A stretch of 64,000 bases of DNA from a virus, in the IMG/VR virus record IMGVR_UViG_3300005683_000016, positions 32,001-96,000 of that record, one strand, 5' to 3'. Below are positions 7,625-51,961 of this stretch, one piece after another. Each line of letters opens with the position of its first letter. Position 1 is the first letter of the stretch. Made by a program: the position numbers and the translations under genes. Below the pieces are notes generated by a model. It was not told the origin of the DNA and did not search any database. It saw only the letters and a program-made list of their open reading frames with translations.

Positions 7625-10600
7625 TTATTTTATTTCTACAATGGTCTTGTCTGGATCAACTAATATTCTATCAGGATGTACTGCAATACCTACAATCACC
7701 ACACAATCATCAGTACCACTTGGAGCAGTTTGAGTAAGAGTATTTCCTGTTGTTCCCGTAGTAGAAAGATAGACATAACCTCCTACTGTCCAGTTCCAAG
7801 AGTCATTTCTTGCAATACCCTTAAGTAAATAGGTTGCTGAGTTACCAGTAGTAACGGTAGCGGTACACATAGCAACTACTTTTGCTGTTGCTATGCCATC
7901 TGCATCAGCAAGGGTTGCATCACCATCAGAACCTATATATACTACGTCACCAAATGCTTGGTTTTCATTAGCAGTAAAAGTTATTTTTTCACCACTTACT
8001 GTTGTGTTAGAAGAAGGTGCAGCAGTAATTACCATTGAGTTTAAGGTGGTTGTCGTAAAGGACAAACCGTCTCCCAAAGTTACACCAGAAAAATCACCAT
8101 CACCATCGGCACCAACCAGTATCGTCGGGTTATCTGTTGTAAGATCTGAAACCCTTAACTCACCTGTAATGTCTACTGTTCTTGCTGGAGCAGAGGTAGA
8201 ACCAAAACGAGTTGCACCAGCAAAGTTGTTTGTAGTGGAAGAACCAGACTGATAAATACCTTTTGCAGATGAATTTGAATAAGCGATTTCTAATCCTCTA
8301 AAATCTGCAATTGTCGTAAGGGTCGGATTTAAGTAGATTCCTCTGGTAATACCACTTGCTCCACCTGTCTGATTAATCGTAGAAGTAAGATTTAGAGATG
8401 CATATGCTTGAGTACCTGAAGTCGGATTAAAAGTATCATCTAACAGAATAGTATGATCTCCTAAAGTAGTTACACTATAAGTAGAGGGAGAATAGACATA
8501 AATTTCTTCTGCCGAATCATCAAATCCCCACAAAGGATTATTATCGTTCCAAGCAAAAAAGAAAGTTCCGTTGGAAGATGCTTTTGCTACCGTAGCATCT
8601 GGAATAACATCCGAACCTCCATAAATACCATTTCCTGCACCTGCTGTAGCAGTAAGAGTTGTTCCTGTAAGACTTAATCCACTTCCTACTGTAATACTGG
8701 ACAACACACCGTTAGCATCTGCTCCTACTATACTGGCAGGATTAGTAGTAGACAAATCTCGTATTCTTACTTCTCCTCCAACATCAAGAGTTCTACTTGG
8801 ACTTGATGTGGAAGACCCTATTCCTAACTTACCTCTTAGATAAGATCTTACAGTATCACCTTCTGGTTGCCACAAAAACGTGTGAGTAGAAGGTTTATAG
8901 TTGATTCCTCTAAAATCATTGGGAGCAGCAGTAAGAGTAGGATCTATGAACAAACCGTTCATGGGTTGATTTGCACCACTGGTTTGATTTATAGTAGTTC
9001 CCAACCTGAGCAAAGAAGGGTATCCTGTGAGAGTACTTGCCAAAGTAGGTGAGTAAGTACCTTCAATGTTTAAAAAGGTGCTTCCTACAAACGTATCTGT
9101 TTTAGCAGCAGTTGGTACTATAGTTACCCCTTGAATAAAAGAATTACCACCCGGAGGTTCTAATTTTATGGTACCGCCCGATGTTTTCAAGGTCATGTTT
9201 CCAGATCCACTGATATAAGACGCATCGTCTTGATAAAGAGAAAATCCAGTAGAGGAAGAAGATCTTTCAATAAATATACCATCAGCAGTGGTGGATTGTT
9301 TTAAATAAAGTCTATAACTTGAAGAGGGACTTGCTCCAATTCCAACTTGAGCACCATTAAAAGTAAAGTCTGCATCACTAGTAACAGTTTGAGTTCCGTT
9401 AAAATAAGCAACCCTACCGGATACTCCACTACCTGTAATGTCGTCACTTGCATTAGTATCTCCCGTGTTTGTTAAAGTGATAGTGGATCCAGATTCGTTA
9501 ATAGAAAGTCCTGTAGAAGCCTCAATTGTAACAGCAGTAGAACCACTGGTATTACTTACAATAGTAGAGGTGGTTCCGCTTCCAGCACCTACTGTTAAAC
9601 TTCCTTCATTGGTTACACTTCCATCCACTTCAGTTGCTGTCACAGTAACGGCACCTGCGGTTTGAGAAATTACAGCAATCCCCGCTCCTGTAATAGACCA
9701 CGAACCACCACCATTAGATAAAGTATTGGTATAAGTAGTAGTACCTCCGTGAGAATATGTTTGTAGTTCATTTGAAGTACTACCGTCTACCTCGGTAGTA
9801 GTGATACGAAGTACATTGGACGATGGTTCACTAAGTACACTTATTCCTGCTGCTTCAATGGTGATGTCGTTAGAAGAACCAGAAATGTCAAATACATAAG
9901 GATTGCTTCCAGTAAGAGACAAATCTTGTATTTCGTTGGTAGTTGAACCGTCAACTTCAGTTGCACCAATAGTTATGGTTGATCCACTTTCACTTACAGT
10001 GACTATTCCTGATCCTTCTATAGTTACTGCTGTGGAACCAGATGTGTTACTCACAATTGTAGAACTATTTCCACCTCCTGTTCCAACAGTTAAACTACCT
10101 TCATTACTAACACTTGCGTCAGTAGCAGTAAAGACAAGAGTATTTGCCGGAGATTCCGACAAAGTTATACCGCTTCCAGAAATTGTAACGTCTGTCCCTG
10201 TTGACGATTCAATTGTATAAGTAGGCCCTGCACCACCAATTGTAAGATCGGTTGCTCCACCAGTTGCGGTTAAAGTGGTTCCAGACAATGACAATCCTGT
10301 TCCTACTGTAATACCGGCAAAATCACCATCGCCGTCTGCACCTACTAAAACAGTTGGGTTGTCTGTTACCAAGTCGCTGACCCTCAGTTCTCCAGTAACA
10401 TCTAATGTGCGTGCAGGAGTAGAGGTAGATCCTATTCTTGTATTACCTGCAAAGTTGTTTGTAGTACTTGTTCCAGACTGATAAATACCTTTTGCTGTGG
10501 CACTTGAATAAGGTATGTCTATTCCTCTATAGTCTGCTACAGCAGTAAGAGTTGGATTGATATAAATAGATCTGATTATACCGTTTGCTCCACCTGTCTG

Positions 10601-13600
10601 ATTAAATGTTCCATCAAAAATAAGTTGATTGTGGATAGCATTCCCGGACGTGGGGTTGAGTCCGTAAGCAAACCTCATATAGTTTCGTGTACCAGATGTT
10701 TGTCCGAGATTAGCAATGTTTCCTATAATTATACCAGCAGTAGAGTTTGCTGCGTTCGCACTGGCTGTTATATCTATTGCACTTGCAGATGTTGCTGTAT
10801 TCGAAACACTTACTAAACCAGTACTGCCTCCAAGAGTTATATTTTGAGCAGAATTTCCTACAGTATAAGTAGTAGCGACAGTAATGGCAGAGTTGGAAAT
10901 AGTAACTGGTGTGGTAGATCCTATGGATAAAATACCTGTAGAAGTGGTTCTATCTAACTTCATTATCTCTGCCAATGCTCCTGCATTGTCTCCCAACTGA
11001 AAAGACAGTGCTGCTTCCCTATTTGCGTGCGTGGCATTAGTCCAATAAGAAGCGATTCGAGCCATATCTTGATTGGTCGTTGTAGAAGAGTGACCCTGAA
11101 ATAAAAGAGCGTTACCAAACAATGTACCACCAGCAGTAGTCGAGTTAGTACGGAGTGTGAGTATATCAGAAACCGTAACAGTGTTTGCAGTAACCTCTGT
11201 CAGGGTCATTTGTCCTCCGGTGGAAGCACCTGTTGAAATAGATGCTCTTGTTACTCCGTTTGTTTCAAAAGATAAAGTGTTGTTGTCATTTGTACCTATA
11301 ATCATTGCTGCACTGAACGAATTACCATTTTGTAAAACATCTCCCGTACCTATCGGTGTAGCCCACGTTCCATCACCCCTCCAAAAAGTAGAAGAAGATG
11401 CTCCAGAACCACTATTTAAGTTGGCAACGGGAAGGTTTCCTGTAATGGCATCCCCATCGGCTAAATCTAAAGCACCCCAAGCATAAGTAGAGGCTCCAGT
11501 TACTCTTAAAACTTGACCAACTGTAGAAGAGTTTGTGATGGCAGTTACAGCAGAGGTTCCGTTACCCTGTAAAATACCAGTTAAAGAACCTGCTCCAGTA
11601 CCACCACGAGATACCGCTAATTGTCCTGTCCAACCTAAAGTCAAACTTGCGTCTCTCAAAAGAGAAGTGGAGGGGTTTCCTCCTAGAGTTAAAGTAACAT
11701 TGGTGTCGTCTACCTTAGTTAAAGCACCTGCTGCGGTATAAGAAGGTGCTGCTGTAGAACCTGTAGCATTACCAAAGTAAGTATTTGCTCCTGCATTAGA
11801 AAGAGAAAAGGTCAAAGCAGGAGTAGTGGTAGTAGTGGCTTCACTCGTAGTAAACAAAGGAGACAAATCACCCGCACTAAAGTTTGTTACAGTACCATTA
11901 TTTGTTGCTGCAATGGTCACCACACCTGCTCCACTTGTACCAGTAGTAGTTAAGGTAATACCACTTCCTTCGGAAAATTGTATAGACCCGCCAGAATTTG
12001 ACAGGGTTAAAGTGTGTGTAGTAGCATCACTTGTATTAGCAAGTGTTTGAAGTTCGTTGGTAGCAGATTCGTCCTGAAATACTCTGGAAAATACCAAATT
12101 TGTAGTTCCTAAAGTGAAAGGCCCCTTAGTATCTAATTTCCAATAAGTAGCACCATAAGTAGCACCTAATTTTACTGCTACTAAAATACCGGGATCCAAT
12201 TTAGATGCTCCATCAGCATCCGTAGAGCGCGTCCACGATCCTGCTGCACAATCCCAAATGCCGTTTTCTTTAGGATCTGTTTGACCTGCCACTAATACTC
12301 GTTGACCGGCACTAATTGAAACACCATCGATTGTTTCAGTACCACTCAAGTCAAGATTGGAAGTGGCAACTGCTTGAACAAATAATTTAGAAGTAGCAGT
12401 ATGATTGTTAAACGTAAAAGTAGGATTACCAGAAACCCCGTTTGTGTTTGCACTACCAATACCTATGTAGGAGGAGGATAAAGAAGAAGCGGAAATAGAT
12501 CTGGTTGCCCAAGTACCATCTCCTGTTCTTACTGCTAATCCTGTAGTTGATAGTCCTTCAACTCCTGCCAGATCATTTGCAAGAGCAAGGGTCATGTTTC
12601 CACTTGAAGTAACAGGAGAACCCGATACAGTAATACCAGCAGCAGGTTGAGTAATTCCTACACTTGTAACTGTTCCTACAGTGTTAGTTACATCAAAACT
12701 AACGGAGGGACTGTTTGTAAGACTAATAGTAAATCGTTCTATTCCTCCTACAGTAGTAGAGTCTATGGAGAGGTCTTGAGTATCAGTATCAGTAATAGTT
12801 GAGGCTATAGTTACGGTTCCAGCAGAACCAGTACCACCTGTGGTTAAGGTGATTCCAGTACCTTCAATAAATTGAACTGTTCCTCCACTATTAGACAGAG
12901 TTACAGTGTGACTTGTAGCATCAGAAGAATTAGTTATGGTCTGAAGTTCGTTCGTGGTAGAGCCATCTACTTCGGTAGCAGTTATTGTTAAAGTGTTAGA
13001 AGTAGCATTATAAGAAGTAGAAGCAATACCAGCACCAGCAAATAATAAAGTTTGGTTGCTAATAACCTCAGTATCTCCTGCGTCACCATCTACTGTCCAA
13101 GCCTCATTAGTAGTACTACCATCTGTTTCAGTTGCTGTAATAGTAAAGTTTGGGTATGTTCCAGTTATGTCTACTATTCCACCTTCAGTAAGAGAAACAG
13201 TTTGATCAGGAGCACTGTTAGTAATAGTTATAGCGTCTGTACCTGCATTTGTGGTAATGGTAATTCCAGTACCGTTTACTAATGTTAAAGCGTCTGTAGT
13301 ACCGTCTGCAACTACATCAGATTGTCCAGAAACTGAAACTGTCTGAAAGATATTTTGAAGTTCGTTGGTTGTGCTACCATCTACCTCTGTAGTAGTGATT
13401 CTAAGAACATTAGCAGAAGGCTCACTAAGTACAGAAATACCAGACGCTTCTATTGTAATGTCATTAGAAGAAGTAGAGATGTCAAAAACATACGGATTGG
13501 TTCCTGTTAAAGAAAGATCTTGAATCTCATTAGAGGTAGAAGCATCTACAGCAGCAATAGTTAATTCGTTAGAACTGCGACTAAGAGTAATACCAGATCC

Positions 13601-16600
13601 TTCAGCGAAAGTTACATCTGTACCTGTGTTTGAATTAAGAGTATAGGGAGAACTGGAACCTGAAAAGGTTAAATCAGTTACCCCTGCACCCGGAGTAGCA
13701 GCAATAGTAATAGTAGAACCAGATTCAGTAATAGTAACGTTAGAACCGCCCTCTATAGTTACTGCGGTAGATCCACTTGTATTACTAACTATGGTTGAAG
13801 AGTTACCTCCACCAGCACCTACAGTGAGTGAACCTTCATTAGTTACGCTCCCGTCTACCTCAGTAGAAGTAATTAAGAGCACATCAGTAGAAGTATTATA
13901 GTCAGTAGTAGTTATACCTGCACCCTGAAACTTTACAGTCTGATTACTAATAACTTCAGTATCAGCATCGTCAGCATCAATAGTCCATGCTTCATTTGTA
14001 GTGGAACCATCGACTTCAGTAGAAGTTATTGTAAAATTTGGATAAGTACCTGTCACTACAGTAATTCCACCATTATTTAATACAACAGTTTGATCGGGAG
14101 AAGAGTTAGTAATAACCAAAGTGTTAGCAGGACTCTCTGAAAGTGAAATTCCAGTACCGGCAGAGAAATTAACATCGTTGGAAGAACCACTAATATCTAA
14201 GGTGTAAGGAGAAGAAGAACCTGTAATAGTTAAGTCTTGAATCTCATTTGAAGTGCTTCCATCCACCTCCGTAGCAGTAAGAGTAATAGAACCACCATTA
14301 GAAGAAGTAGACTCACTAATCGCAAGAATACCAGCAGCATTTATAGTTACAGCGTTTCCAGTAGAAGTTGTAGTTAACAAAGTAGCAGATGTACCACTAC
14401 CTGCACCAACTCCTAAAATACCTTCGTTGGATATACTACCATCAACTTCAGTCCCTGTAATGATTAAAGTATTAGCAGGAGACTCGGAGAGTGTAATTAT
14501 ACCGGCACCAGAAATAGTTATATCTGTTCCTGTAGAAGACTCTACTGTGTAAGTAGGCCCGCTTCCTCCGATAGTTAAATCAGTAGATGCAGAAGGAGGT
14601 ACAGCCCAAGTTCCATCTTCTCTTAAAAACTCATCAGTACCACTTCCGTCTCCATCTGGAACCAAACCTCTTAAAGAGGAAGTCATTATTGGAATAGTAG
14701 TACCTGTTCCACCACTAATACCCAAAGCCCCGGTAGATTGAGTATAACTTAAATTTTGAGCATCGGTGTTATCTAAGTAGGAAGAGAGATCAACTGTTTT
14801 GAAAGGAACCCCATCAGAACTAAGAGAAGCACGAAGTATATTACTTACAATTTCAAATGTATCAATTTGTTGAATTTCATTTGTCGTGCTACCGTCTACT
14901 TCAGTACTCGTAATAGTAATGGTGTTTCCAGATTCGTTTACAGTAGTAATTCCAGATCCAGTAAGTGTAATAGTTGCGCTACCAGAACTGTTAGATTGGA
15001 TTAAAGAAGTGGTTCCAGTACCTGCTCCTACTGATAATACACCTTCATTTGTAACAGATCCATCTACCTCTGTTGCAGTTAAAATTAAAGTATTTGCAGG
15101 TGATTCACTTAAAGTTAAGATACCTGCCCCTTGAATAGTTACATCAGAACCCCCACTGATAGCAATATCGTAAGTAGGCCCCGATCCTTCTATGGTAAGA
15201 TTTTGAGCATCTGTATTAGTGACAGTACTCGCTATAGTAAAATTGGGATAAGTCCCTGTTACATCAATCCCTGTTCCTTCAGAAAGACTAACCGTTTGGT
15301 CTGGAGAACTATTAGTAATAGTTAACTCATTAGAAGAACGAGACAATGAAATTCCTGTGCCAGCAGCAATGGTCACATCTGTTCCAGAAGACGAGTTTAA
15401 TGTAAACGGAGTAGATGCTCCGGTAAAAGTAAGGTCGGTAGCTCCTCCCGAAGGAGCATCACCCCAATATATCTGCGAACCAGATGAATACAGTATTTGT
15501 CCAGCATCACCATAAGTTCCTGCTGATTTTATCGCAATGCTGTCCGGCGTGACCTGGATCAGATTGTTAGCACTGTTTGCCAACTGAACAACATCATTGT
15601 CAATATATACTTGTGCTTGTGCATTTGGACTGTAAAATCCTACGTGCCCATCTGTGGCAAGCGAATCTTCGCCAGAGTAGAAATCTGCCATGATCTCGCT
15701 GTTCGGATACATGAACTGAATGCTTGCAACACTGTCAAAATTTACGAGCCTAACGGTATCGGCCAAAATATTTCCATTTGAGTTGTAGATATTCTGACCA
15801 CCGGCAGTATTAATGTCAAAATAAATTGAATTGCCATCTTCAATACTGATTTCAAATCTTTCAATGTCTCCGATCATTGCGGAGTCAATCGAAAGGTTTT
15901 GGTTGTCTGTGTCAGTAATGGTGCTTGCGATGGTGAAATTCGGGTATGTGCCCGTCACATCAATTCCCGTACCCTCGGAAAGGCTCACTGTTTGGTCAGG
16001 CGCCGAGTTGGTGATGGTAAAATTGGGATAGGTGCCACTCACGCTGATCCCCGTTCCGTTGTTCAGAACAACCGTCTGATCGGGCGCTGAGTTGGTAATC
16101 ACCAAGGTATTTGCCGGGGACTCCGACAATGTGACCCCTGTTCCAGAAGCAAAATTCACATCGTTTGCCGAACCTGAAATGTCCAGGGTGAATGGGGAAG
16201 AAGACCCTGTGATGCTCAAGTCCTGTGCGTCGGTATTGACGTATGAAGAAAGATCAACGCTGGAAAAAGGAAGTCCGTCGTTTAACAGCGAAAGCCTGAG
16301 GGTATTTGACACGATCTCAAATGTATCAATGGTCTGGATTTCGTTAGTAGTAGACCCATCCACTTCGGATTGGAGATACCTTCCATCGAGATCTACTGTA
16401 TTACCTCCACTGATTGAGAGTTCTCCATTAGACCCATTCCAAGAGAGTGTTTGAGCATCAGTATTCGTAGAGGTATTAGTAATGGTAAAGTTGGGATAAG
16501 TTCCAGTAACTGAGATACCTGTACCATTATTAAGCACTACTGTCTGATCAGGAGCAGAGTTTACTAAAGTAGTTCCACTGAAATTTAACCCTGTTCCTAA

Positions 16601-18055
16601 GGTAATTTCACTTACATTAGCAGTAGATCCTGTAGGATTTCCTAACAATGTTTGAGCAGTGGCTTGCTGCATCTTAGCGTAAGTAATTTGATTATTACCT
16701 ACATGGATAGTCAAAACATTCAAGGTGTCTAAGAAAAGACCTCCCGGAATCCAGTTAGAACCATCGGATGCGTAGAAGTATTTAGATCCGTTAACATCTA
16801 CTGTTTTTAGAATAATAGACCCCTCTATATCTACAGAGGGTAAAGGAGTTATAATATCTAAATTATAAACTTGAGGACTGCTTCCACTTACTCCCGGAAG
16901 AACTACAAAGTCTTCGGGAATAGAATCATTAAATAGAGAGATGTAAAGAGTATCATTAGAAACTCTAAACGTGTCTACATACTGAAGATATGTATCGTCG
17001 TTATAATCTTTATGAGTAATACTTAAGGAGTCAAACGTAGCCCTGTGATCTGAGTAGTAACGAGCATCATTACCTCTGATAGTAACTCGATCTGGAGAAG
17101 TAGTAAATAAATTAATCCCATTACCACTTATGTCTAATCTATTAGTTCCTCCTATGTCGTTTTGTTTAAGAGTTAAACTATCAGGAGTAAATCTTGCTTG
17201 TGCTCCATATACTGTAAGATCGTAAAGGATGTCAAAATAAGCAGAATCTTTATCTGACAAAAAGGTGATACCGGAATCAATTACTGCTTCGTGATGATAA
17301 GTTACAGTGTCAGAAACTCCATAAATACCACCTCCTTGACTTGCAGAAAGTCCAGTAAGAACTACAAATTTTTTAGGAACTCCATCACTTGACAGTGAGA
17401 GATAAAGAGTGTCGTTAGATAGAACGAAGGAATCTATCTGTTGAATTTCATTAGTAGTAGATCCATCAACCTCTGTTGAGGTTATAGTAAAGTTAGGATA
17501 CGTTCCACTAATAGCACTAATACCTGCTCCAGTTAAAGTCACAGTCTGGTCAGGAGAACTATTTGTGATAGTAAAATTAGGATAAGTTCCACTTGTAGTT
17601 ATTCCTGTACCAGAGTTTAAAACTACAGTTTGATCAGGTGCTGTGTTAGTGATTATGTTACTACCTATGCTAATTCCTGTTCCTGCTGTGTAAGGTACTG
17701 AAGCACAGTTAAGACAATTCCAAGTAGAACTGTTGTACCAATAAATTAAGTTAGAGTTGTTAATAATAAAGTCTGGTTCCCCATACTTGGGAGACACAGT
17801 AGGAGCAGCATTGGAGTTTAGTTTACCAATCATAGATCCTGCTAAAACCCACACACTATTAGTGCGGTTAAATCTCCAAATCTTCGAAGTGGTAATATCT
17901 ATGGCCCATTCACTGTCATATTGAACTCTTGGTGTACCTGTAGGTTGACCATTAGTATAAATAACAGCAGCACCTTTACTCACGTTAGTAACCTGAGAAT
18001 AGAGGGAAATAGTAGAAATTAAAAGCAAAAGAGTAAAAATAATTTTATTCAACAT
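7625..18055 (-). CDS. Giant (~3,476 aa) Ser/Thr/Gly-rich repeat fibre/adhesin protein with N-terminal signal peptide
   Basis: Probable start [20 protein letters not shown]|Q at 18055 (the tracked start at 18163 lies inside the upstream gene). Many EVDGSTTNE(I/L)Q and PDQTV...GTYPNFTI repeats, a phage-fibre 'TIDGV...RVLV..QT..ENGIW...WTR' domain, and a C-terminal cement-like domain. Confidence 0.8.
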
Positions 18056-18419
18056 CTTCAACAAGGAGTTTAGGTGAACCATAAGGTAATCCATAAGTAT
18101 TATTTTCTGAAAGATAATAGATTTTGTCTTTTTGTACTCCGTTATCAAAGGCTTCTTGGTCATTAATAAAGAATTTAATAACGGTAGTTTCTCCGGGTAA
18201 AAGAGTACCGTCAGAAGTTACTATTCCCACATATCGAGTAGTTACCGAGAAAATTTCCGTAACTTCTTGGGGAAAGAATGAATTATTAAGTAAAAGATAA
18301 CTGTGTAGTAATTCAGACCAATCAATATCTTTTTGTCCTATTCCAAGATACCTTGAGAGGACATATTTATATTGTTGATTGAATAGTTTACATTTGGATT
18401 TATCGAGAGAAAACCGCAT
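18045..18419 (-). CDS. Hypothetical structural-module protein
   Basis: 124-aa ORF tightly packed in the operon. Confidence 0.6.
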
Positions 18420-40729: not shown

Positions 40730-41941
40730 TTACAAAACGTGTTTAACCGTTTTAAACTTAAGACCTTTGTAATGTTTTTTACCTTCGTAAAGAACCTTTT
40801 CGATTGCTTTTCTTTTGAACTCTGGATGTTTAGATATAAAATCATTGATGGAAGGATATTCAGTTTCGGTATCTCCATTTATTACAATTAGTTTTACTTT
40901 AGGCGCATTTGATGTATTTACCCTAAACTTAACTGACTCTAATTTATCTTCATAAGCAAAAGGATATTGAAGAGTGGGAAGTCCTTTACATAAAATAGTC
41001 CGCAAAGAACTTTCGTTTAAATCGTGCTCTATAAGTAAATGCTTAACCGAAGCATATCTTTTTAAAATATTTTTATCTTGATCTATGTGAAGAACGTTGG
41101 TGGTTTTTTTTCTTATTGTATATAGTTCATTAGGATCATATTCTTTTTCTGGAACAAAGATTAATCCTTTAGTAGATCGCTGTCCTTCTTTACCATATAG
41201 AATTCTTTCTAAAGCATTTACAGATACTTGGGGATAAGTGTCTCTAATCTCTTTAGGAGAAGTAAAGGTTTTAATTATTTCTGAAGAATCAGGTTTGATC
41301 TGGAAAATGTTTCCTAATGAAGTAAAAAGTTGAACTTCAAATTCTTCTTTAGTGACTATTCTATAAGGGTTGAGAAAAAGATATACGTCTTTCACTAAAC
41401 CTGTTTCTTTAGATGTTAAGATTATTTTGAGTTTATTGTTACTCTTTCTATCTAAGAAAATAGAATGAGTGTCTTTGAATTTTAAAGTACGTTCTATAAT
41501 ATTGGTTTTAATAGAATCTTCTATGCCATCGAGTGTTTTTAACTTTGAATAATGTTCAAAGTTTTTCTCAGACATTCTCTTCTGCTTACGTTCTCTTTCT
41601 TGTATATGCCATTCTGCATTAAAAGTACCCTGGATAGCCGATTGAAAATTATACCCCCCACCCACTTTTAAGGACTCATAATAATCCATCCAGTAATCTT
41701 CTCTTTCGTTTAAGAGAGATTTATTATTAGGGTCAATAAGTTCTAATATCCTAAACACAAATGCTTGTTCTCCATACTTATTCCAAGAAGATTGTAAATA
41801 AGTATTACCGTGTATTCCTTTTCTTAGAGAAGATCTATGTTGTGACCACCTCGAAGTAATATTTACACTTTGACCAATGTAACGTTTGTTGTTTTCTAAA
41901 TTAAGAATTTCGTAGATACCTGATTTTGCTTTGTGTGTCAT
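40730..41941 (-). CDS. GIY-YIG homing endonuclease
   Basis: Likely start MTHKAKSGIYEI...RYIGQS...RW.QH...LQ.SWNKYG. Confidence 0.88.
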   Translation of the reverse strand: MTHKAKSGIYEILNLENNKRYIGQSVNITSRWSQHRSSLRKGIHGNTYLQSSWNKYGEQAFVFRILELIDPNNKSLLNEREDYWMDYYESLKVGGGYNFQSAIQGTFNAEWHIQERERKQKRMSEKNFEHYSKLKTLDGIEDSIKTNIIERTLKFKDTHSIFLDRKSNNKLKIILTSKETGLVKDVYLFLNPYRIVTKEEFEVQLFTSLGNIFQIKPDSSEIIKTFTSPKEIRDTYPQVSVNALERILYGKEGQRSTKGLIFVPEKEYDPNELYTIRKKTTNVLHIDQDKNILKRYASVKHLLIEHDLNESSLRTILCKGLPTLQYPFAYEDKLESVKFRVNTSNAPKVKLIVINGDTETEYPSINDFISKHPEFKRKAIEKVLYEGKKHYKGLKFKTVKHVL

Positions 41942-42132
41942 GTTATATGTTTTTGATTGCGGGGGTAAAGGTACAAAAAAATAAGAAGGGTGTATGGATT
42001 TTAACATTTTGTTATGCTTGTAAGATAGCATAAGTTTAGCCTCATCCCCCTCACCCATCCTCAATTTGATCTCCTACGCCCCCTATGGGTTATTTGGAGA
42101 TCATATTTTTTCACATGAAAATTTCCAGCAAC

Positions 42133-44173: not shown

Positions 44174-44587
44174 ATGCTTTACCTATTCAACACTACAATC
44201 ATGCCTAATGAAGGCGTGTTTGTAAATCGCAAAGTATCCAAAGAACAAGCCTGGGAGATTATTGCAAACGCACCAGCGTTTACATCTGCGTTGGGCCATC
44301 AAGGCTCAGCAGATGTATTTAATGCTGTGTTTCCAACATTTGAAGTATCTGTAAATCGCATCCAAGCACAAATGCAACCCAAAGATGAGGCAGTATGTCT
44401 CAAAGTGTTGGGTCGTCTTCCAGAAGGACAAATCCTTTCTCTTGAACAATTGCAAGAGATTGGTTTCGAATTTTTCCATGTCCAAATGGTCATGGGAATT
44501 ACAGAAAACCCAATCGCATTTACTTGCGAGATGGGAGGGTCAAAAAACGAAAAAACATTCACCGCGTTTGGTGAGTGTAAATTTTAA
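44174..44587 (+). CDS. acrIII-1: DUF1874 / AcrIII-1 family viral ring nuclease
   Basis: YLFN N-terminus, FTSALGH (catalytic His), VNRI and GRLPEGQIL: the signature motifs of the STIV B116/YddF family. Confidence 0.88.
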   Translation: MLYLFNTTIMPNEGVFVNRKVSKEQAWEIIANAPAFTSALGHQGSADVFNAVFPTFEVSVNRIQAQMQPKDEAVCLKVLGRLPEGQILSLEQLQEIGFEFFHVQMVMGITENPIAFTCEMGGSKNEKTFTAFGECKF

Positions 44588-44966: not shown

Positions 44967-45599
44967 ATGAAAAATAAAAAAATCCTGTCTATTGATGCCG
45001 AAACCGATGGACTTTGGGGCAATCCGTTTGTAGTTGCCGCTATCGTATATGAGTGGCAACCAGAAAAATTCATCCCAGGTATGGATCGTGGTGTAGATGG
45101 GTACAGACCTGAACACATCCTTCAAGGATATTGGAAAGAAACCAACAAAATTCTGTTAAAACTACCTGATACAGTGGTTTCTAACCAATGGGTAATCGAG
45201 AACGTATTACCTACATTGAGCAATATCCGCCAACACTCTGGCGGTGCTGGTAGTGAATATGTGAACCATACTCACGAATCTTATGAAGACATGCTGCGTG
45301 ATTTTGCAGCATTTTATCTTGCTCACAAACAAAATGCAGATTGCATCTGCCACATGGGCTACATTGTAGAGGCCCATTTGTTTCGGGAAATGCACCACCT
45401 TGGTCACATAGGAGAATGGGATGCACCATACCCGTTGCTTGATGTGTCAGGCAATCTCCAGCAAGTTGGAGAAGATCCTACAAGTGTAGATAATTATGCT
45501 AAAAAACATCGGTTACCAATCACGGATTATGGTTCAACCCATAATCCCCTGTACGACTGCGAAGTTGCCGCCAAAGTGTATATGCACTTAACACGGTAA
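44967..45599 (+). CDS. DEDDh 3'-5' exonuclease
   Basis: SIDAETDGL (ExoI) ... HNPLYDC (ExoIII). Confidence 0.8.
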   Translation: MKNKKILSIDAETDGLWGNPFVVAAIVYEWQPEKFIPGMDRGVDGYRPEHILQGYWKETNKILLKLPDTVVSNQWVIENVLPTLSNIRQHSGGAGSEYVNHTHESYEDMLRDFAAFYLAHKQNADCICHMGYIVEAHLFREMHHLGHIGEWDAPYPLLDVSGNLQQVGEDPTSVDNYAKKHRLPITDYGSTHNPLYDCEVAAKVYMHLTR

Positions 45600-45605
45600 A
45601 CAATC

Positions 45606-45773
45606 AAAATCAAAAGTGAAGTGAAATATATCCATAATGTAATAGACGGTAAGCAGTCCGTTGAGCATATTTGGTTAATCGTGAATGTACTATGTACAAT
45701 GCGAGTATTAAGACCTTTAACGGGTTGCAAGGAGATAATATAATTATCAAATTGTAGGACGGCTTTTGATTTT
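45606..45773 (+). ncRNA. Unidentified multibranched structured RNA
   Basis: Closing stem AAAATCAAAAGT/GCTTTTGATTTT encloses TCCATAAT/ATTGTAGGA and four hairpins. Confidence 0.5.
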
Positions 45774-45897
45774 TTTTAATAAGATTACGGTGAGAATCCG
45801 TCTCTCAGCAAAGTAGTAATACTTGAACTAATAGAGAGTGTAATAAGATGTTCAGTAGCGAAGAAATTAATTTTTCTTAGCGAGAATGGAGAAATCC

Positions 45898-46041
45898 TCT
45901 GAAGTTATTACAGATAACCATGTGGGGCTTATGTCTTGAAATTCTTAAAAAGTGGCGCACTTTTTATTAATAAGTTATAATTCTGTATTAGTACAGCGTA
46001 ACTTAGATTATCAAGCATTAGTGCAGACTTAAAAATCATGG
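45898..46041 (+). ncRNA. Hatchet ribozyme with expanded P4
   Basis: P1 TCTG/CAGA, then CCATG-TGGGGCTTATG-T-CTTGA...TCAAG-CATTAGTGCAGAC-TTAAAAAT-CATGG. This matches the hatchet core as I recall it (CAUGUGGGGCUUAU...AUUAGUGCAGAC...CAUG), with compensatory changes. Confidence 0.85.
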
Positions 46042-46163
46042 AGTGGTACGACCTCAACTCGTATAATCTTTGTTGCAGATATTGATGAAAACATGAAAAG
46101 ATGTTCTGAGAGTCTTTTAAAAAGGTATCAAAAAGCAAAAGAAATTTTATTAAAAATATAAAA

Positions 46164-46594
46164 CATTCACTCCGTAAAGTCTCAGTCTTTAACAGGACTC
46201 ATCACAATTCCTTTAACGTAACATAAGTTGGTGGAACAACAGGCTTAGGTCTGTCTCACAAGTATGGTGGAAGTTTGGTTGGTAAAGACAGGAGATAATG
46301 TAATCCGAAAGGATTGGCAGCAGATGGACATTGTGTTCTTAGAACATAAATAGGTCAATACAAGATGAACAGATTAAATGCTGTTATGCTTGGACGTTTC
46401 CTTATCTGCCTTTTCAAGGTAACACTTTCAAACCAGTAATGGTGAGATAATGAAGAGTATACATGTGGCAAAAGTGTTCCAGTAAGAGCATACCCACCTG
46501 ACAGGGTAATTCCAGTTTCCAAATTGTATAAGGAAACAAACGGGTTAGGATATAATTGTGCAGACGCCCTAATAGTTAGGCTAAGGGTGTAACA
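46164..46594 (+). ncRNA. Unidentified large structured RNA, copy A
   Basis: Shares conserved blocks and covarying stems with 47241-47677. Confidence 0.75.
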
Positions 46595-46599
46595 ACTCC

Positions 46600-47230
46600 C
46601 AATCATTGGGTTAAATGGTAGTTATCAGTTACTTTAACTGATTTAGTTTACCTGTTTGTATAAATTTAACAGGAGTTCTTGTACATACAAGTGTTGTTAC
46701 TTTTTCCAGCAGTCAGAAAAAAGCGTGTAATCTACGAGATAAGATTAACCTACTGTACTTAGGTTTGAGGGTAGTTCCATGTACAACATTGAACCGAAAG
46801 GTATCATGTAAGCCCTTAAGTGGGATAAATTGAGTTAAATTGTGTTAGGTTGAAAATATACCTGTAAGAAATAATACATTTTTCGCATTTGTGAGATTTG
46901 TTAAGGTTCTTCCACAATAATATCCTACACTCAACGATGGCAGCCGGGTTGGAACCCACAGTAGATAAATAACTATACTCTTTTAGGGAGTGAAGTCAGT
47001 GTAGTTTTACTGAAAAAGTTAGTATTTATTAGACTGTTTAATAGGCGTTTTGTATATTGTAAAGTTGAATTTGTATCATAGAGAATCTGTGGGTGGATTT
47101 GCCTAATGTTAGGTGAGAGTAAGTTCGATCCTTACCGTTGATATAAATTTAACAGATATACAATCCTATACTATATAAGTCTGATCAACTTATGTAGTAA
47201 TTGTGCGACCCACATTATTGTGGGTGACAT
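46600..47230 (+). ncRNA. Unidentified ~630-nt ornate RNA (ROOL/GOLLD size class)
   Basis: No ORF; many hairpins and long-range stems; ends in the same 3' module as copies A and B. Confidence 0.6.
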
Positions 47231-47240
47231 TTTTTAAAAA

Positions 47241-47677
47241 CATCCACTCTGTAAAGTCTTGTAATTCGCGGAAGGTTTAACCAAATATTCTCTCTTTGGG
47301 GATAAAAAAGGTGAGAATCCTTTTTCTGTGTATAGACAGGAGATGATGTAAACCAATAATATGGTTTGGCAGCAGATGGACATTGTTATTTCTTAAATGA
47401 ACTAATAAATAGGTTACTGTTCAACTTATATAAGTTGAAAGAGATTTCCTTATCTGCCTCTTCACGTTAATAGCGTTCAAGATACACTATGACCGTTGTG
47501 AAATTCAACAGGAACTACTGATTCTATACCAATCAGAGTAGTGTACATCCAGTAATGGTGAGATAATGAAGAGTATACTAAGGGTAGTCCGTAATTCAGA
47601 AATGAATTAGAGTGGGAAAATAGACTTATAAAAATCCTACCTTAGTAATTGTGCGGCATCCCAAGTGGATGCAACAT
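47241..47677 (+). ncRNA. Unidentified large structured RNA, copy B
   Basis: Conserved blocks and covarying stems shared with copy A. Confidence 0.75.
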
Positions 47678-47689
47678 TTATTAACAAAA

Positions 47690-47724
47690 TTTTAACTTTT
47701 AACTTTTAACTTTTAACTTTTAAA
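47690..47724. repeat. Tandem heptamer (TTTTAAC)x4 plus TTTTAAA
   Basis: Read directly; lies immediately upstream of the ATG at 47737. Confidence 0.9.
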
Positions 47725-47736
47725 ATTGTAACGGAC

Positions 47737-48114
47737 ATGCAATTTACATTAGATCACAAAGTAGGAACAAACTATGTAACTGTCACTTTAAGTGGAAAAG
47801 TATCTCCACTTATATGGTGTGAGTTTTTCACAAAACTCCAATATCTTGGAGGAAAACAAGCAGTAGAAGGACAGTCGGATATTTGGCTGTTACCTACTTT
47901 TGTTACATCACAAGTCATTGAAGAAATCATCCATAACACATGTTTCGTGTGTGGTGGATTGATGAAAGATTCTACTGCATTTTTGAATGACTGTGTATCA
48001 TTCGATGATTTTGGTAATGATGCTGGACAACGAGGTACAACACAATCACGTGTTGGAGAAGCAAAACAAGTCAAAGTTCGCAAGTGCTCTTCTTGCGGAC
48101 ACTCACACACTTAA
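47737..48114 (+). CDS. Hypothetical protein with Zn ribbon
   Basis: CFVCGG ... KCSSCGHS. Confidence 0.7.
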   Translation: MQFTLDHKVGTNYVTVTLSGKVSPLIWCEFFTKLQYLGGKQAVEGQSDIWLLPTFVTSQVIEEIIHNTCFVCGGLMKDSTAFLNDCVSFDDFGNDAGQRGTTQSRVGEAKQVKVRKCSSCGHSHT

Positions 48115-48300: not shown

Positions 48301-48468
48301 ATGAACAAGATATTGGGAGCATTTAATATAACACGAGAGTATGATGGACGTGAAGTAGACTATATTGGATTTTTATCTTGTACAGACGGAGAATGGGTCG
48401 GATCAGGAGAATCTACATGTATACGATATGTAGAATGGTTGATCCACACCAATCAGATTCCAAATTAA
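48301..48468 (+). CDS. Small hypothetical protein (55 aa, not in the ORF track)
   Basis: ATG to TAA open frame, MNKILGAFNITREYDGREV... Confidence 0.5.
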   Translation: MNKILGAFNITREYDGREVDYIGFLSCTDGEWVGSGESTCIRYVEWLIHTNQIPN

Positions 48469-48482
48469 AAAAACAATAAAAT

Positions 48483-48866
48483 ATGAATCAACCAATCATT
48501 TTCAACAAAAATAACCCAACAGAAAAATACATTATTACCGAAAAATGGGAGTTTAACCCCAACGGTATAACCGTCTTTGATATGGAAGTTGGAGGAATCA
48601 CAGATAACGGATTTTACCATTTTTCAGAAATCGAAAATTGGAAAAATTTAGTTAAGCAGGATTTAAAACCTAAAGTCGTAGAAGCAATTCAATCACAAAA
48701 CCTTGAAAAGGTATTATCGTTGCTTCATTTTATGTCAGATAACGGTGTATTATATCAAGGAAGATATAACGCTCTAAAGAAACAGTATACTATGGGCATG
48801 ATTGAATCCTCAGAATATACAAGAGGAATTGCTCAAATAGGTTACGACATTTTGAAAAAATTTTAA
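48483..48866 (+). CDS. Protein with C-terminal EAD11-like helical domain
   Basis: 'EAIQSQNLEKVLSLL...LYQGRYNALKKQYTMGMIESSEYTRGIAQIGYDIL' follows the EAD11 pattern (L..R...L......G.I.........I...L). Confidence 0.6.
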   Translation: MNQPIIFNKNNPTEKYIITEKWEFNPNGITVFDMEVGGITDNGFYHFSEIENWKNLVKQDLKPKVVEAIQSQNLEKVLSLLHFMSDNGVLYQGRYNALKKQYTMGMIESSEYTRGIAQIGYDILKKF

Positions 48867-48944: not shown

Positions 48945-49379
48945 ATGAAAATACCAGAACAATTTATCAATAAAAATCAACTTAAAAACCTTCCTATAGG
49001 TGCTATAGGCTATGCTGTTCCTTGGGTAATGTGGGTAGATATGGAAGGGAATGCTTTTCTTAATGAGAATTACGATTTACACCCTTCAAAAGGAGGTACA
49101 GTAAATCTTCAGATTACAAAAGTACCTGAAGGATATGTTGTGCATTTAGATAAATTCAGGTATTATGACAGAGAATATACTTGGACAAAACAAGAAAGTC
49201 CAGGATTTGCTTCCCCAAACGAAGTTTGCTATGGTAGAGTAGTTGCTTTTTCAGATAAAGAATATCAAGCATTGCAAAAAGATCCTGAGAGAATTAGGAA
49301 TCTTATTAACGAATGTATTCTTAACGAGAATTATGAACAAGCAAGAGAGTACCAAAACATTCTCGATCAATTGAATTAA
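48945..49379 (+). CDS. Hypothetical protein with C-terminal UVR-like motif
   Basis: 'INECILNENYEQAREYQNIL'. Confidence 0.65.
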   Translation: MKIPEQFINKNQLKNLPIGAIGYAVPWVMWVDMEGNAFLNENYDLHPSKGGTVNLQITKVPEGYVVHLDKFRYYDREYTWTKQESPGFASPNEVCYGRVVAFSDKEYQALQKDPERIRNLINECILNENYEQAREYQNILDQLN

Positions 49380-51103: not shown

Positions 51104-51435
51104 AAATTTTTCTTATATTAAGTGTTATTGGTATCTGTTTATGGGAATCTTATTCACCTCTCCCTGATTTTAGTAAGAAAGAGTTCGAATATTATTATCC
51201 CATTTGTTCACAATTTAAATCAAACGTACCTGTATCTATTTTGATTCTTTACAAGATTCAATCTAAAGATCAGGTACGTTTGTTTAAGAAAAAACATTTA
51301 CTTAGATCAAAATCTTTAAAGGACTGGATTCAATATATGAATCTTTCTGACGAAGAAATTGAAAAATTACTAAAATATGAGAATTACGAAAACAGTCTTC
51401 GTAGTCGTAGTTCTTCTATTAGGATATACCGTTAA
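51100..51435 (+). CDS. Signal-anchored hypothetical protein (degenerate glucosaminidase-like?)
   Basis: N-terminal hydrophobic stretch; 'VPVSILIL..IQS' weakly recalls GH73 but lacks the catalytic Glu. Confidence 0.4.
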   Translation: MKIFLILSVIGICLWESYSPLPDFSKKEFEYYYPICSQFKSNVPVSILILYKIQSKDQVRLFKKKHLLRSKSLKDWIQYMNLSDEEIEKLLKYENYENSLRSRSSSIRIYR

Positions 51436-51961
51436 CTCTTATACTGTTGAGTTGGGTTCTCCTCGAATAGAAGAACCTGAAACAATCGAAGAGAAATACA
51501 AAGTGATACAAGAATGGAGTCACGGGCTAAAAGAAAAAGGATTGATTTCGATTAGTCCTGATTCTTTTGCTAAGGCTGCAATTATTGTAATGTGGTGCGA
51601 AAGTAGACTTGAAACTAAATCTCAAGATAAGTTGGGAAGTCAAGGATTAAATCAACTGCTTCCTTCTACAAGAAAGTTGATTGGTGCTCCTAATGATATT
51701 CGAAATAAATCATTTAGAGAACATCTTGAATACTTTGAGGCCTACCTTGTATTAACTGGAAAGAGCAATCAAATCGAGTGTAGTATAGATCTCCACGCAC
51801 TTAATTTTGCACCATCAAGATTTCACAAAGAAGTGTTTTGCAAGACTTCTAAAGGGTTAAAGGCCCTTGACAAGAATCAAGACGGTGTAATCAGTCGTCA
51901 AGATTTACACTTGTTTCAACAAAAGAAAATTATAAAAAATTCTTTTTTAAAATCTCTATAA
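51377..51961 (+). CDS. Lytic transglycosylase (SLT-like) with signal anchor
   Basis: 'MWCES', 'QGLNQLLPST' and a C-terminal 'LDKNQDGVIS' EF-hand-like motif. Confidence 0.75.
   Translation: MRITKTVFVVVVLLLGYTVNSYTVELGSPRIEEPETIEEKYKVIQEWSHGLKEKGLISISPDSFAKAAIIVMWCESRLETKSQDKLGSQGLNQLLPSTRKLIGAPNDIRNKSFREHLEYFEAYLVLTGKSNQIECSIDLHALNFAPSRFHKEVFCKTSKGLKALDKNQDGVISRQDLHLFQQKKIIKNSFLKSL

Follow-up and report, generated by a model that had tools for sequence, protein, structure and literature searches.

The window analysed here is a stretch of 64,000 nucleotides corresponding to bases 32001-96000 of a 142,038-bp IMG/VR virus record, which is rated 100% complete by CheckV. The portal, TerL and MCP-like genes are found on the minus strand, at 23-31 kb, and all of the nearest cultured relatives of TerL, which share 24-27% identity with it, are crAss-like phages infecting Bacteroides, Flavobacterium and Cellulophaga. 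On the basis of these similarities the genome is assigned to the large crAss-like phages, and, since the TerL relatives are crAss-like phages of Bacteroidota, a host of this phylum is to be expected independently of the domain described below. The virion block also contains a single ORF of 3512 aa (7625-18163, minus strand), whose GC content of ~40% is above that of the rest of the window. A GIY-YIG-type homing endonuclease (40730-42064, minus strand; PHROG 7168, E 3.8e-24) is located at the junction of the divergent gene blocks.

The gene under study lies close to where the plus-strand block begins, with an RNA-rich stretch devoid of ORFs on one side and a tRNA-Leu gene on the other. It encodes a protein in which a beta-rich N-terminal part precedes the EAD11 domain at the C-terminus. 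The features of the locus are:

48301..48468, plus strand: upstream ORF of 55 aa, ending 14 nt before the EAD11 gene; no family match
48483..48866 (including the stop codon), plus strand: phage EAD11 gene, 127 aa, ATG start (ORF listing, Pfam)
48483..48629, plus strand: N-terminal part of the protein, residues 1-49, with predicted short beta strands (AlphaFold2, ESM Atlas model)
48630..48857, plus strand: EAD11 (PF19964) adaptor domain, residues 50-125, four helices (Pfam, AlphaFold2, alignment)
48945..49379, plus strand: downstream ORF of 144 aa, 62% identical to its copy in the phage fragment L083
49387..49472, plus strand: tRNA-Leu(TAA), just 3' of the EAD11 gene region

The 55-aa ORF is probably co-transcribed with the EAD11 gene, because of the 14-nt gap between them. 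In fragment L083 the downstream gene is kept and preceded by other small ORFs, with no EAD11 on the record, so the EAD11 gene can be regarded as accessory. No neighbouring ORF reached a curated cut-off in Pfam. Only two had a match in PHROGs, 44174-44587 (phrog_5063, function unknown) and 44967-45599 (a weak RNase H match); no known anti-defence gene was found among the neighbours by either collection. The order of the genes would place the EAD11 gene in an early region, while scans for sigma-70-type and Bacteroidota-type promoters performed no better than on shuffled sequences. Two other elements were observed upstream. The ORF-free, RNA-rich stretch (45600-47730) contains a Hatchet ribozyme (45894-46041, plus strand; Rfam RF02678, E 1.2e-12, scoring 67 bits where the gathering score is 51), and a zinc-ribbon-like ORF of 125 aa with two CxxC pairs (CFVCGG ... 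CSSCGH) but no family match is located two genes upstream of EAD11 (47737-48114, plus strand).

In a Pfam hmmscan of the 127-aa protein, EAD11 (PF19964) was the single family found, with an E-value of 4.4e-8 and a score of 33.4 bits, over the gathering score (the curated cut-off) of 26 bits. The match aligns residues 50-125 of the protein with positions 3-74 of the 80-position profile, and agrees with the sequence-only reading, in which an EAD11-like C-terminal domain had been proposed from a helical pattern seen at residues ~66-125. The AlphaFold2 model, built with 46 aligned sequences, shows four helices (53-70, 75-84, 87-103 and 109-126) in a block with pLDDT values of 74-95. The domain is thus small, all-alpha, non-enzymatic and C-terminal, and scores above the family cut-off: the C-terminal half of the phage protein is a genuine copy of EAD11.

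Residues 1-46 are modelled by AlphaFold2 as four short strands with pLDDT below 50, and the N-terminal ~50 residues match no family in Pfam or PHROGs. In the ESM Atlas model ~50 residues of this part resemble LSM and viral DUF6561 clusters, with TM values of 0.63-0.70; the part is possibly a small Sm/SH3-like barrel, which is to be taken as a lead only, and could carry another function. The protein had also been described as a stand-alone copy of the domain. This is correct in that EAD11 was the only domain found, with no effector domain beside it, but the N-terminal extension of ~50 aa makes it more than a bare domain.

The fold of the domain was compared with known structures by two methods. 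Foldseek gave nothing at E<=1e-3 against the PDB, with no Death-fold chain among its matches, and the top 50 results of a wide VIA-align search (best Z 7.3) were generic helical bundles, again with no Death-fold chain. By both methods, the nearest structural matches of the model are helical bundles of a generic kind, and many of these are designed oligomers. As far as the models can tell, the relation between EAD11 and Death domains is one of analogy only, with no detectable similarity of fold.

In order to identify relatives of the phage protein, several sequence collections were searched. A protein identical to it is on record on a 142-kb contig; a near-length word search recovered only the protein itself, and a tblastn search against 50,697 GenBank phage records returned no match. 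One PHROG family, phrog_30519, aligned across the EAD11 region at E 0.068, and was discarded as a phage EAD11 family on finding that 0 of 42 host EAD11 domains matched it. When 1.84 billion cluster representatives were searched exhaustively with phmmer (E<=1e-3), 20 matches besides the protein itself were obtained. Seventeen of them score over the EAD11 gathering score and one, P0014, matches the profile weakly (18.1 bits); two, P0005 and P0006, do not contain EAD11 and were rejected as repeat or compositional matches. All 18 EAD11-bearing sequences align through residues ~56-126 of the query; they include six EAD11-TIR proteins, one EAD11-CHAT protein, five proteins with multiple EAD11 repeats and several short proteins. 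Identity to the EAD11-TIR and EAD11-CHAT proteins is 38-43% over the domain, with preservation of the motif RYN..KKQY.MG.I..SE[WY].R..AQI.Y.

In a scan of prokaryotic genomes, one for each species, 49 loci were found, nearly all from metagenome-assembled genomes (MAGs) of Saprospiraceae, Lewinellaceae or Chitinophagales, with 29-56% identity (mostly 35-47%) over residues ~60-125. The suggestion that the domain hints at the family of the host is therefore supported by its nearest genomic homologues. Full ORFs could be established for 46 of these loci: 41 are EAD11-TIR and two EAD11-CHAT proteins. In a tree of the domain, which rests on 80 columns and is to be used as a rough guide only, the phage EAD11 has a long branch (1.23) and groups with P0014 as its sister (SH-aLRT 88); both are nested in a clade made up mainly of TIR-type EAD11 (SH-aLRT 96). 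The phage domain is 35-47% identical to the host domains, which in turn are 54-93% identical to a reference host domain (L008), and keeps 21 of the 37 strongly conserved host positions. The conserved columns are kept in all four helices (H1 2/5, H2 4/5, H3 7/11, loop and H4 8/16), with no clear asymmetry towards one face. A cap-type decoy, in which one face of the domain would be selectively kept, was considered and set aside for lack of such an asymmetry across H1-H4, and no claim is made for it.

The base composition of the gene is that of the phage. Its GC content is 31.5% (30% at third codon positions, GC3), compared to 33.6% for the phage genome and a GC3 of 21-27% for the neighbour genes, whereas the host EAD11 segments have 53.5% GC and 67% GC3; no nucleotide similarity to host genes was detected. 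Since its composition is ameliorated, and frame and domain are intact, the gene has been resident for long in an AT-rich phage lineage. P0014, a protein of 136 aa from a short contig rich in AT, is laid out in the same way, and its EAD11 part is also low in GC. It aligns with residues 33-124 of the phage protein (BLASTP E 5e-12, 29% identity), from the last N-terminal strands through EAD11.

The number of EAD11 copies in the phage was assessed by six-frame searches of the whole 142-kb genome. The EAD11 model identified a single locus (E 2.7e-9, 34.2 bits), and none in 14 control genomes; when an HMM derived from 76 diverse EAD11 domains was used instead, the next-best match in the phage had an E-value of 0.06. 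As no second EAD11 is encoded by the phage, any EAD11 partner of the protein must be a host protein or the 127-aa protein itself.

EAD11 is one of the effector-associated domains of Kaur, Burroughs, Iyer and Aravind (eLife 2020, PMC7159879; eLife 2021, PMC8195603). Homotypic coupling through EADs is a published prediction, not a measured property (PMC7159879, PMC8195603). Like its bacterial counterparts, the phage domain is small, all-helical, non-enzymatic and found at a protein terminus, and its closest kin are EAD11-TIR and EAD11-CHAT proteins. It differs from them in being phage-encoded, in having no effector, sensor or hub fused to it, and in the long branch that it forms in the tree. The paired copies expected from the EAD principle are not found within the phage, which has one EAD11 only, but are present in the presumed host family.

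The expansion of EAD11 in Saprospiraceae, mentioned as background in the sequence-only reading, could be verified by counting. Matches over the cut-off were found in 59 of 101 genomes of the Saprospiraceae-type family, with up to 32 per genome, compared to 4 of 301 genomes in an even sample of the phylum. Five Saprospiraceae/Lewinellaceae genomes contain 19-26 matches each, scattered over the chromosome. The fusion partners in these hosts are nSTAND1 NTPase, FGE-sulfatase/FGS, protein kinase, SIR2, NUDIX, TPR, CHAT/caspase-like and TIR domains; a receiver (REC)-trypsin protein of 1606 aa is a further one, and three SIR2-EAD11 fusions occur in one genome. By comparing the coordinates of the matches, 17 cases were found in the five genomes of an EAD11 match followed on the same strand, at a distance of 15-138 nt, by an nSTAND1 match. 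In the three cases inspected, EAD11 is the C-terminus of one gene and a STAND NTPase gene follows directly. Such two-gene modules were drawn from host genomes G002 and G004 (L164, L166, L187 and L190): the upstream gene is SIR2-EAD11 in L164 and L187, and in L166 the EAD11-ending gene and the nSTAND1 gene overlap by one base. In L190 the upstream gene is itself of the nSTAND1-EAD11 type, and the nSTAND1 NTPase gene comes directly after it on that strand. The association of EAD11-bearing genes with adjacent STAND genes is the architecture named the EAD principle by Kaur et al.

From the kinship of its EAD11, and from its crAss-like lineage, the likely hosts of the phage are inferred to be Saprospiraceae/Lewinellaceae, within Bacteroidota. 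When 20 kb of phage DNA were compared with 201 genomes of the family, only chance-level matches of 24-70 nt and no CRISPR array were found. For an uncultured phage of 142 kb, EAD11 kinship provides a hint to the host group.

Other phage copies of the domain were sought in viral contigs. A first scan, with another alignment (A1), found nothing; a scan with an alignment of host EAD11 domains (A5) identified three contigs. One of them, L196, is a phage fragment of 16.6 kb (GC 35%, ~10% complete according to CheckV), carrying the following gene:

L196:2450-2815: short EAD11 gene, 121 aa, with EAD11 at residues 3-67 (47.1 bits)

L196 and the phage described here share three collinear non-coding blocks with 84-88% identity, which are a conserved phage RNA element with no match in Rfam. 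The blocks are located at 46795-47066 in the window and at L196:877-1142, ~1.3-1.5 kb upstream of the EAD11 gene in both. Downstream of its EAD11 gene, L196 has tRNA genes and a homologue, 34% identical, of the ORF at 51377-51961, so that the order RNA, EAD11 gene, tRNA, ORF is common to the two. To judge from these similarities, L196 is a distant relative of this phage.

The layout of the 121-aa protein is opposite to that of the 127-aa one: EAD11 is N-terminal, and is followed by an unrelated AT-rich tail with no other domain. The 200 nt coding for EAD11 form a GC island of 53% (GC3 63%) in a background of 31-35% GC, and are 71-75% identical at the nucleotide level to host EAD11-TIR genes; this similarity begins at the host start codon and stops where the domain ends. 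Because of this host-like GC island, L196 looks like a phage that has recently captured the adaptor part, but not the TIR part, of a host gene. A weaker island is present in P0010, a protein of 132 aa, where the EAD11 part has 50% GC and the contig 38% outside the gene. Given an identity of only ~34% between the EAD11 domains of this phage and of L196, and their opposite architectures, the two were probably acquired separately. EAD11 ORFs of 268 aa were also observed on two viral contigs with a GC content of 48% (L194:3246-4049 and L195:5001-5804). The L194 ORF has an in-frame stop inside the EAD11 domain; this copy is a pseudogene, is recoded, or is host DNA in a viral bin.

Viral FLIPs, as well as cellular CARD-only and pyrin-only proteins, are adaptor-only inhibitors of Death-fold signalling. 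They would share with the phage protein a common logic, an adaptor without effector competing in homotypic assemblies, by analogy and not by homology. A closer precedent is pCARD, a CARD-only protein of Acinetobacter phage 133, which reduces gasdermin cleavage and defence of a CARD-dependent system, and which its authors compare with poxvirus pyrin-only proteins (Wein et al., 10.1101/2023.05.28.542683). Like pCARD (141 aa), the 127-aa protein is essentially an effector-recruiting adaptor domain without the effector, with the caveat of the unassigned part of ~50 aa beside the domain. The adaptor family (EAD11 versus CARD-like), the host phylum and the immune system differ. Finally, pCARD was recognized by its predicted structure and then tested, whereas the phage EAD11 protein is known from sequence alone.

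The best reading of these data is that the 127-aa protein is a decoy, or dominant-negative adaptor, an interpretation that is given an even chance of being right. The protein would be made during infection and would bind the EAD11 domains of the host, or the site at which these dock on the NTPase hub, competing with effector-borne EAD11s (TIR, SIR2, CHAT) for assembly with the STAND sensor; the killing enzymes would then be neither recruited nor activated. Host identity, expression, binding and inhibition are all predicted in this scheme. It is supported indirectly by the fact that EAD11 is an orphan in the phage, in a gene that is old and retained, by the independent capture of the adaptor part alone in L196, and by the experimentally tested pCARD precedent. 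A decoy function is therefore plausible in the light of the comparative evidence. On the other hand, with only 21 of 37 conserved positions kept, the phage EAD11 is divergent enough that it may no longer fit host partners.

Other explanations were weighed against the same data. The protein might be an active adaptor or hijacker, whose N-terminal part binds a phage or host factor, while EAD11 links this factor to the EAD11/STAND network or removes the effectors; these could be retargeted or degraded, or used against competing phages (superinfection exclusion). The conservation of part of the extension in P0014, where the alignment starts from residue 33, the small beta barrel suggested by the ESM Atlas model, and the fact that host EADs normally tether a second functional module are in keeping with this proposal. 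The extension, however, matches no family and is poorly modelled, and in L196 an N-terminal EAD11 is joined to an unrelated tail, so that the common denominator of the phage proteins is EAD11 and not the extension; a hijacker is considered unlikely. A possible use of EAD11 within the phage's own biology, for instance in the self-association of a small regulatory or assembly protein that leaves host EAD11 untouched, was judged distinctly unlikely. Small helical domains do often oligomerize, the phage domain has strongly diverged from the host versions, and its nearest structural matches include many designed oligomers, as expected in such a case; but the phage has no second EAD11, the gene is dispensable, being absent from the related L083, and the recent capture in L196 from a host gene of EAD11-TIR type would be difficult to account for if the host network were not targeted.

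The gene could also be a functionless leftover of a captured host fragment. Phages do pick up host fragments, and the EAD11 ORFs on the viral contigs L194 and L195, the former with its in-frame stop, can be read in this way. A long residence, with fully ameliorated composition and an intact frame, argues against it, as do the open frame kept by P0014, which has the same layout at 29% identity, the Pfam score above the gathering cut-off in spite of the divergence, and the repeated capture of the same domain in L196 and P0010. A leftover is accordingly thought to be very unlikely.

The decoy interpretation can be extended to a more general proposal, which is possible but doubtful at present: crAss-like phages of Saprospiraceae-type bacteria would repeatedly excise EAD11 from effector genes, keeping it as a small protein in one variable region, and one such plug could disable a STAND-linked network of ~20 effectors with a single adaptor in common. 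This would be the first counter-defence directed against the EAD layer. No description of a phage-encoded EAD was found in the literature, nor an EAD11 system with experimentally shown anti-phage defence. An adaptor-only counter-defence protein whose adaptor family, phage and host group all differ from those of the CARD precedent is plausibly new.

EAD-coupled, NTPase-centred systems are predicted to make up a large layer of immunity and programmed death in bacteria, almost all of which is known by prediction only. An adaptor-only protein in a phage would represent independent evidence, based on evolution, that this layer matters during infection. If the decoy interpretation is true, the CARD-decoy principle would hold for an unrelated adaptor family as well, in another phylum and in crAss-like phages, and the GC island of L196 illustrates how such inhibitors may arise. 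It would also provide a recipe for finding anti-defence genes, as orphan adaptor domains in phages, sometimes within islands of host-like composition. The phage EAD11 protein could in addition be used as a small and easily expressed probe, for pull-down of the hub, for mapping of the EAD11 interface and for switching the systems off.

Short proteins with EAD11 also occur in the presumed hosts, as in the case of a 90-aa EAD11-only protein encoded by host genome G002 (L185:4992-5261). By analogy with animal CARD-only and pyrin-only proteins, it may be an endogenous regulator. The phage protein resembles host proteins of this kind in being short and little more than an EAD11 domain; these are chromosomal and of host-like composition, whereas the phage protein has an extra N-terminal part and falls within the TIR-type clade.
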